64,000 bases of DNA from a virus (taxonomy: Duplodnaviria; Caudoviricetes). Numbering within the stretch: the first letter of the stretch is position 1; each line of letters opens with the position of its first letter. Under the pieces are notes generated by a model, which was not told the DNA's origin, searched no databases, and saw only the letters and a list, made by a program, of their open reading frames with translations. The stretch is from positions 1 to 64,000 of the IMG/VR virus record IMGVR_UViG_3300023175_000012; one strand, written 5' to 3'. Shown piece by piece: positions 60,029 through 60,222 of this stretch. Both the position numbers and the translations under genes were made by a program.

Positions 60029-60110
60029 CCACTTTTTATGAAAAATTAATGATTTTCTGCAAGATTTTTGTCAAAAAGTGTGTTTAAATAATAATTGAAA
60101 GGAGATTGTT

Positions 60111-60182
60111 ATGTGGACAAAACCTAGCTATACAGAAATGCGTTTTGGCTTTGAAGTTACAATGTATGTAATGAACAAGTAA
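60111..60182 (+). CDS. pqqA: Pyrroloquinoline quinone precursor peptide PqqA ([23 protein letters not shown])
   Basis: 23-aa ORF absent from the ORF track; AAGGAG RBS ending 6 nt before the ATG; hallmark W.KP...R.GFEVTMY with the invariant Glu-x3-Tyr; TTAAATA late-type promoter at 60084-60090. Confidence 0.93.
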   Translation: [23 protein letters not shown]

Positions 60183-60192
60183 AACCGTAGTC

Positions 60193-60222
60193 AAAAAAAT
60201 AGGGCCCTAAGGCCCTATTTTC
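60193..60222. terminator. Bidirectional terminator shared by the major capsid gene and pqqA
   Basis: AAAAAAATAGGGCC-CTAA-GGCCCTATTTT. Confidence 0.85.

Follow-up and report, generated by a model that had tools for sequence, protein, structure and literature searches.

The DNA analysed here (the window) comprises positions 1 to 64,000 of the IMG/VR virus record IMGVR_UViG_3300023175_000012, which totals 115,784 bp and is about 31% complete as estimated by CheckV. It carries, beside the gene for the major head protein, a genuine phage-borne gene for PqqA, the precursor peptide of the redox cofactor pyrroloquinoline quinone (PQQ), and we consider it probable that this pqqA is a functional orphan gene that supplies substrate to the PqqBCDE pathway of the host. 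The gene lies at 60111..60182 (+), where an original prediction made from the sequence had placed a 23-codon open reading frame (ORF). It starts with ATG and comprises 23 codons plus a stop (72 bp), and the peptide contains the Glu-x3-Tyr pair as Glu15 and Tyr19; the available text of one report describes the cross-linking of Glu and Tyr of PqqA by PqqE (PMC9851590). The predicted identity was confirmed with hidden Markov models (HMMs): with Pfam PF08042 the ORF reached 46 bits, above the cut-off of 21.1 (E 4.5e-12; profile positions 1-19 of 19), and with the equivalog model NCBIfam TIGR02107 it reached 47 bits, above the cut-off of 20 (E 1.5e-12). A six-frame PqqA search of the entire 115,784-bp record returned this single site (E 5.3e-12), and none of the 14 control genomes was positive. 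A search of solved structures with the window peptide gave 0 matches. The gene resembles bacterial PqqA (PF08042/TIGR02107) in HMM family, length, Glu-x3-Tyr pair and identity of up to 19-20 of 23 residues, but differs in being phage-encoded, in its AT-rich phage codons and in its tail, VMNK as opposed to IANR in one candidate host family.

The remaining genes of PQQ synthesis were not detected. PqqB, PqqC, PqqD, PqqE and the PQQ-dependent alcohol dehydrogenase (TIGR03075) gave 0 matches at E <= 0.01 in the 115.8-kb record, and no radical-SAM/SPASM match was found within it; the claim that the window holds no other pqq genes therefore holds for the whole record as well, as does the absence of a PQQ dehydrogenase of the xoxF/mxaF kind. 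The PqqC model used in this search detected PqqC in two candidate host genomes and was silent in all control genomes. With about two thirds of this phage's genome lying outside the record, the absence of pqq genes applies to the 115.8 kb sequenced. Whole-record searches of 40 virus records with pqqA, including four with a completeness of 90% or more, found PqqB or PQQ alcohol dehydrogenase in 0 of the 40 and exactly one PqqA match above the cut-off in each. Linkage to pqqBCDE is thus lacking in the 115.8-kb record; as unlinked pqqA is usual in the family to which the host probably belongs, this is compatible with membership in the PqqA family.

The small gene has a ribosome-binding site and a terminator of its own. 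The predicted ribosome-binding site was located: AAGGAG at 60099..60104 (+) is a Shine-Dalgarno sequence 6 nt 5' of the ATG, and related loci have GGAG-type sites at the equivalent position before pqqA. Downstream is a two-way intrinsic terminator at 60196..60221 (both strands; 11 pairs, with T-runs on both strands), which lies 13 nt past the pqqA stop and 17 nt past the end of the convergent ORF at 60239..61417 (−). The product of the latter is a major head protein of the T4-like family (phrog_138, E 2.4e-100), so that both the proximity of pqqA to the capsid gene and a terminator common to the two genes are as the original prediction described. The folding energy of the terminator was −16.1 kcal/mol on the plus strand (z −4.4) and −22.7 kcal/mol on the minus strand (z −5.7), and 0 of 200 shuffled sequences were equally stable.

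Upstream of pqqA is a conserved element at 60046..60093 (+), composed of the box TTAATGATTTT at 60046-60056 and the box GTTTAAATAATA at 60082-60093, which may function as a promoter. Both boxes are kept upstream of pqqA in 10 of 10 related capsid-context loci, in either orientation of the gene, and also in three other loci (L042, L036 and L078), whereas the two-box form (TAATGA, 25-45 nt, TTTAAATA) has a single occurrence in the 115.8 kb. Because the two boxes precede pqqA across related loci, the element belongs to the gene and not to a phage late regulon. A sigma-70-like sequence, TTGTCA-16-AATAAT, at 60068-60095 had a match score of 10/12. The original prediction had assigned a late-type promoter to this region, and the motif TTTAAATAATA is indeed found at 60083-60093 (+); its status as a late promoter, however, is unsupported, since the motif moves together with pqqA and shows no enrichment in this phage, TTTAAATAATA with at most one mismatch being observed 7 times in the window as against 7.8 expected. 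The T4-type late promoter (TATAAATA) was examined as a candidate and rejected, as the motif is neither recurrent nor enriched in the phage (2 observed in the window versus 9.5 +/- 3 expected) and the two-box form is unique in the 115.8 kb. The upstream element was not seen in the bacterial pqqA loci inspected, and no known RNA of Rfam matched the sequence upstream of pqqA in any of the seven loci, phage or host, that were searched.

Comparison with related phages revealed that the element and the ORF behave as a unit. The order head maturation protease, phrog_10922 protein, head gene, pqqA and 151-aa ORF is kept in 10 other IMG/VR contigs. The arrangement in four of these (L008, L010, L037 and L092, from four different dataset ids) is identical to that of the window, almost base for base. 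In the other six (L032, L067, L077, L004, L040 and L041) pqqA is co-oriented with the head gene, unlike in the window. When the window minus strand was aligned to four of the six co-oriented contigs, the segment 60198->60033 matched in reverse with 81.7% identity over 169 nt in L077, 91.7% over 109 nt in L032, 73.9% over 180 nt in L041 and 88.7% over 106 nt in L004. The end of the head gene was collinear in all four, and the region beyond was collinear in L077, L032 and L041. The upstream element and the ORF are therefore a cassette of about 165 bp (60033..60198), inverted in the window relative to these phages, that occupies one site in either direction. No convincing inverted repeats were found at the cassette boundaries, where there were short chance-level matches only. 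A gene that works in both directions must carry its own expression signals.

The distribution of pqqA among phages is broad. We scanned IMG/VR with a degenerate peptide pattern that fixes many residues, the matching contigs not being independent samples, and found a pqqA-type peptide in at least 119 contigs, among which 110 have the ...GFEVTMY... type and 13 encode the exact peptide of the window. Neighbour clustering together with PHROG searches distinguished at least seven gene contexts, all made of phage genes. The window type (protease, phrog_10922 protein, head gene, pqqA, 151-aa ORF) is one; the others are portal, two ORFs, major head (phrog_267), pqqA and tail fibre (35-38 contigs); protease, ORF, T4-like head, pqqA and tail tube; TerL, virion protein, pqqA, SSB and UvsX; small ORFs, pqqA and baseplate hub; methyltransferase, pqqA, Hsp20 and DNA polymerase; and small ORFs, pqqA, ORF, TerL and portal. 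Among the 119 matches listed, the nearest ORF of at least 70 aa was a major head gene in 54, with two unrelated head families represented. To see whether the TerL/SSB/UvsX context is another region of the same phage type, ten neighbour proteins were compared by tblastn with the window's record, about 31% complete, and the head protein was the sole match. All ten representatives examined (seven from IMG/VR, plus the phages Venkman, Melnitz and P19250A) passed the Pfam PqqA model.

A tblastn search with the window peptide, which is free of the pattern, matched 12 sequenced phage records, nine of which are isolates on Methylophilales or Methylophilaceae hosts. Identity was 95.7% in Venkman (22/23; host Methylophilales H5P1), 91.3% in a Caudoviricetes metagenome-assembled genome (MAG), 87.0% in P19250A (20/23; host Methylophilaceae IMCC19250) and in MEP301, 82.6% in MEP401 and MEP402, 72.7% in four Melnitz records, and 72.2% over residues 2-19 in two Acinetobacter phage MD-2021a contigs. 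There was no annotated feature under the match in 7 of the 12 records, and pqqA was unannotated in all three cultured-phage records inspected: the Venkman ORF is in the gp27/gp26 gap, antisense to its neighbours; the Melnitz ORF is at 2495-2566 (+) of MZ577097.1, with a 31-aa ORF annotated on the opposite strand; and the P19250A ORF is inside an unannotated gap. Residue 7 is Ala in these three phages, a form that the IMG/VR pattern excludes, and hence the IMG/VR count is a lower bound.

Two further groups of pqqA loci were noted in the course of the scan. Thirteen phage loci of several contexts share another conserved leader, 20-85 nt before pqqA, in which ACTCAA is followed by a 6-bp stem, a loop beginning CTTG, the return stem and then GAnCTGTnT..ACAT. 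In a co-fold of nine distinct sequences, two-sided changes preserved pairing in 4 of the 9 predicted pairs, and there was no Rfam match; the leader may be an RNA hairpin or a dyad-containing promoter. Seven other contigs carry a different, Klebsiella-type PqqA (...RLGLEVTLYISNR), 300-450 nt from the contig end and with its own terminator, and for two of the seven the classification is that of a complete provirus, about 40 kb long. No PqqB was found in the four of these records searched whole, nor was there a megablast match among sequenced phages. Temperate phages infecting a different group of hosts may be the carriers of this type of orphan pqqA.

The phage ORFs vary as coding sequences under constraint do. 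Among the matches listed, 111 phage ORFs of the window type comprise 57 distinct DNA sequences and 30 peptides. Across the 57 sequences, the sites variable at codon positions 1, 2 and 3 number 7, 8 and 19 of 23, and the exact peptide of the window is encoded by six DNA sequences (13 other IMG/VR loci and the window). Phe12, Phe14 and Met18 were left free by the search pattern; the first is conserved in 56 of the 57 sequences, the other two in all 57. These counts, from a test partly constrained by the search pattern, indicate that phage pqqA is under purifying selection.

We also examined bacterial pqqA loci as a guide to the host. A bacterial scan with a stricter pattern yielded at least 120 stretches and at least 136 peptides. 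Among the matches listed, the closest bacterial peptides (19-20/23) come from MAGs labelled Burkholderiales, Betaproteobacteria, Alcaligenaceae or Thiotrichaceae, and a Methylophaga peptide reached 17/23. Five bacterial genomes with the same peptide type all had PqqE over the cut-off, with 12 pqqA matches in total. In one bacterial genome (G001), the ORFs downstream of pqqA are, in succession, 305, 212, 94 and 385 aa long, which matches pqqB, C, D and E in size and order; PqqC and PqqE were confirmed by HMM, and a second, orphan pqqA is found 5 kb away. Such extra orphan copies resemble the window gene in that they stand alone, with their own terminator, apart from pqqBCDE. Tandem pqqA copies a few hundred bases apart, each with a terminator, were seen in methylotroph MAGs (L203 and L205, with three copies), and six other loci have two tandem copies each. 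The available text of Beck et al. (2014; PMC4109929) gives 3-12 pqqA copies in Methylophilaceae versus one pqqBCDEFG set. The host is most likely a PQQ-using methylotroph of the Methylophilales/Methylophilaceae kind, as judged from peptide similarity. The link to Methylophilaceae is drawn because of the hosts of the cultured phages and these copy numbers, and the 22/23 and 20/23 matches to Venkman and P19250A, both on Methylophilales/Methylophilaceae hosts, agree with the PQQ-using, possibly methylotrophic, host that the original prediction had proposed.

Virus-encoded pqqA has been published before, in Lake Baikal and in reservoir sediments, and the window case is not a first. As described in the available text of Coutinho et al. 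(2020, Microbiome 8:163; PMC7678222), Lake Baikal harbours T4-like Methylophilaceae viruses with a GC content of 35%, and the representative of population VP_266 encodes methanol dehydrogenase, PqqA and peptide deformylase, genes that the authors interpret as boosting PQQ-dependent methanol oxidation. Compared by that description, VP_266 resembles the window's record in being T4-like (the record has a T4-like head gene), in carrying pqqA and in GC content (35% vs 36.5%), but differs in its methanol dehydrogenase and peptide deformylase, there being no PQQ alcohol dehydrogenase in the 115.8 kb. The Baikal VP_139/VP_266 gene set, pqqA with a viral methanol dehydrogenase, did not recur here: TIGR03075 gave 0 matches in the record, about 31% complete, and in 0 of the 40 others. 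[quoted passage not shown] In the Melnitz paper, PQQ appears solely as a growth-medium supplement. In our literature search, with subscription journals and supplements outside its range, viral pqqA was found in PMC7678222 (and its preprint) and PMC13188868 only, and no report was found of pqqA in cultured methylophages, of its breadth, of the inverted cassette or of the Lys tail; these four points appear to be new to print.

The cultured methylophages (Venkman, P19250A, MEP301, MEP401/402 and Melnitz) have peptides 72.7-95.7% identical to that of the window but are of other phage types, with genomes of 35-142 kb and other gene contexts. In Venkman, pqqA is among early or replication genes, and in Melnitz it precedes tRNA-Leu and the baseplate hub. 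Venkman, Melnitz and P19250A have Ala7, where the window group has Tyr or Phe. A broader parallel is offered by psbA-like auxiliary genes of cyanophages, by which the phage provides a template for the fastest-consumed component of the energy system of its host. The logic is the same for pqqA, but the product in the window is a 23-residue biosynthetic substrate that is consumed, not an enzyme or a structural subunit.

How might such a gene serve the phage? One PqqA peptide is consumed per PQQ molecule. As a small self-contained unit of upstream element, ribosome-binding site, 23 codons and terminator between the head gene and the next structural unit, pqqA would, upon infection of a PQQ-dependent methylotroph, enlarge the pool of PqqA peptide, which host PqqD/PqqE, PqqB and PqqC would convert to PQQ. 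The added template would keep the periplasmic methanol or alcohol dehydrogenases, and with them the energy supply, going while host transcription fails; since one peptide is used per PQQ and the hosts multiply only pqqA, extra template would be what sustains the dehydrogenases.

Several observations weigh against a gene that simply supplies the host pathway. The host is deduced from the relatives of one 23-aa peptide, and the record is about 31% complete, so further pqq genes or a PQQ enzyme could sit in the remainder. The conservation counts are partly built in by the pattern, and the 119 contigs are not independent. As to expression, 24 metatranscriptome runs contain the window stretch, 8 of them with at least half of its sampled words; in four of the 24, for which contigs only were used, the depth over the head gene was up to 2133, and that of the bin containing pqqA (60014-60214) was 9.0, 1.4, 18.3 and 0, with no listed RNA contig piece spanning pqqA, a coverage compatible both with transcription of the gene and with its absence. 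The C terminus is also distinctive. Among the matches listed, 79 of the 119 phage loci encode a C-terminal Lys and 40 a C-terminal Arg, the latter being the last residue of 135 of 135 complete bacterial peptides; in the family of G001 (29 genomes), the Lys form was found in 0 of 29 and the Arg form in 25 of 29, at 48 sites, all IANR. The tail after Tyr19 in the window, VMNK, is common to Venkman and P19250A, and the exact window peptide was found in no bacterial genome among the matches listed, nor in the genomes of the G001 family. If relevant to processing, the altered tail might make the phage peptide behave differently.

The phage-specific tail would be expected of a decoy or brake, a peptide with the leader part retained that binds host PqqD/PqqE and is poorly processed because of Lys in place of Arg and VMN or IAT in place of IAN; the effect would be less PQQ synthesis, or S-adenosylmethionine and reducing power freed for the phage. 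We regard this as improbable. A decoy could dispense with the cross-linked residues, yet Glu and Tyr are kept, including in the three cultured-phage ORFs found by tblastn without the pattern; moreover, 40 of the 119 listed phage loci have Arg tails, some of their peptides being identical to bacterial ones, the hosts multiply pqqA themselves, and the phage has no obvious gain from depriving a methanol-oxidising host of energy in mid-infection. The RNA contigs, among which no listed piece spans pqqA, and the mobility of the cassette, which occupies one locus in both orientations and recurs in numerous unrelated contexts, could fit a neutral passenger, that is, a tiny, harmless moron taken from hosts or other phages that has no effect on infection. 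Such a gene would not be expected to show the coding-type constraint described above (variable sites numbering 7, 8 and 19 by codon position, and one peptide encoded in six DNA versions), to persist in seven or more phage contexts and in streamlined phages with small genomes of 35-44 kb, or to retain its own ribosome-binding site and terminator, and we therefore consider this explanation unlikely.

The peptide could also be the substrate of an enzyme other than that of the host, encoded in the unsequenced 69% of the genome; the phage would then synthesize PQQ entirely by itself or form another product. That 31% of the genome is sequenced leaves room for such an enzyme, the Baikal viruses as described in the available text have radical SAM genes and methanol dehydrogenase, and the accessible part of the reservoir study lists viral pqqA, pqqD and pqqE. 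There was, however, no PqqB, C, D, E or radical-SAM/SPASM match in the 115.8 kb, and PqqB was found in 0 of the 40 pqqA virus records (four of them at least 90% complete), PqqD and PqqE not having been searched there; we give this explanation little credence. That the locus is a chimera of assembly, or a fusion of host with phage sequence, has a negligible probability: nothing was found in favour of it, both junctions recur in the four contigs from separate datasets that share the window arrangement, which argues against a chimera, the GC content is phage-like (33% for pqqA and 36.5% for the record), and the exact peptide is in no bacterial genome among the matches listed. A phage gene that supplies PqqA to the host pathway is thus the explanation that we favour.

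The surroundings of pqqA are those of a large T4-like phage. If the 115.8-kb record is 31% of the total, the full genome is about 370 kb, that of a jumbo phage. The major head gene has 66.8-68.8% nucleotide identity with major capsid genes of phages of 310-469 kb, which agrees with the genome size implied by the completeness estimate. In the PHROG search, the genes 5' of the major head gene were identified as those of the head maturation protease (phrog_207) and the phrog_10922 protein. Directly upstream of the protease gene, a strongly acidic ORF with repeated DEEVDEA-like units at 63176-64000 (−) runs past the end of the window; it had no match in the PHROG search. On the other side, the 151-aa ORF at 59181..59636 (−; cluster c17), divergent from pqqA, is a conserved partner of the locus that is present in the 10 related loci, and it too was without a PHROG match. 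Farther away, an 1846-aa ORF at 51674-57214 (−) contains many copies of a motif resembling SNSDLELRASGTG and is probably a long fibre or virion decoration protein.

Two RNA elements were observed between pqqA and the 151-aa ORF. A stretch at 59781-59981 (−) with 48% GC gave a full-length match to manA RNA (RF01745) of 47.4 bits, below the gathering threshold of 55.2 (E 4e-11 for 511 bases), and is conserved in L008, L010, L037 and L092. It is preceded at 60001-60028 (−) by a sigma-70-like TTGACT-16-TATATT (10/12, with TG) and followed at 59750-59773 (−) by an intrinsic terminator. Because of this promoter-like match and the terminator, the manA-like stretch appears to be a small RNA of its own, encoded between pqqA and the gene that follows. 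A freshwater-2 RNA (RF02980; 76.6 bits vs a gathering threshold of 49.9) lies at 59634-59717 (−) as the 5' leader for the 151-aa ORF, whose ribosome-binding site and ATG it includes.

PQQ-dependent methanol dehydrogenases underpin the energy metabolism of abundant aquatic methylotrophs. The gene for the precursor is only 72 bp long and is unannotated in three cultured-phage records, and surveys of auxiliary genes may thus undercount it. We put forward tentatively, as a proposal with somewhat less than an even chance of being correct, that phage pqqA did not arise by scattered captures from hosts but is a phage-adapted lineage, with a Lys-ending tail absent from the bacterial genomes scanned, that spreads as an orientation-independent mini-cassette of about 165 bp among unrelated podo-, sipho-, myo- and jumbo-type methylophages, and that it is near-universal in phages of OM43/LD28-type methylotrophs and almost never annotated. 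If this were true, the supply of the PQQ precursor would be the main metabolic bottleneck that methylophages relieve. Culturable phage-host pairs with pqqA exist (Venkman, Melnitz and P19250A), which makes the function of the gene directly testable. If phages do supply the consumed precursor, viral infection would have a direct bearing on how methanol is turned over in lakes, estuaries and coastal seas.

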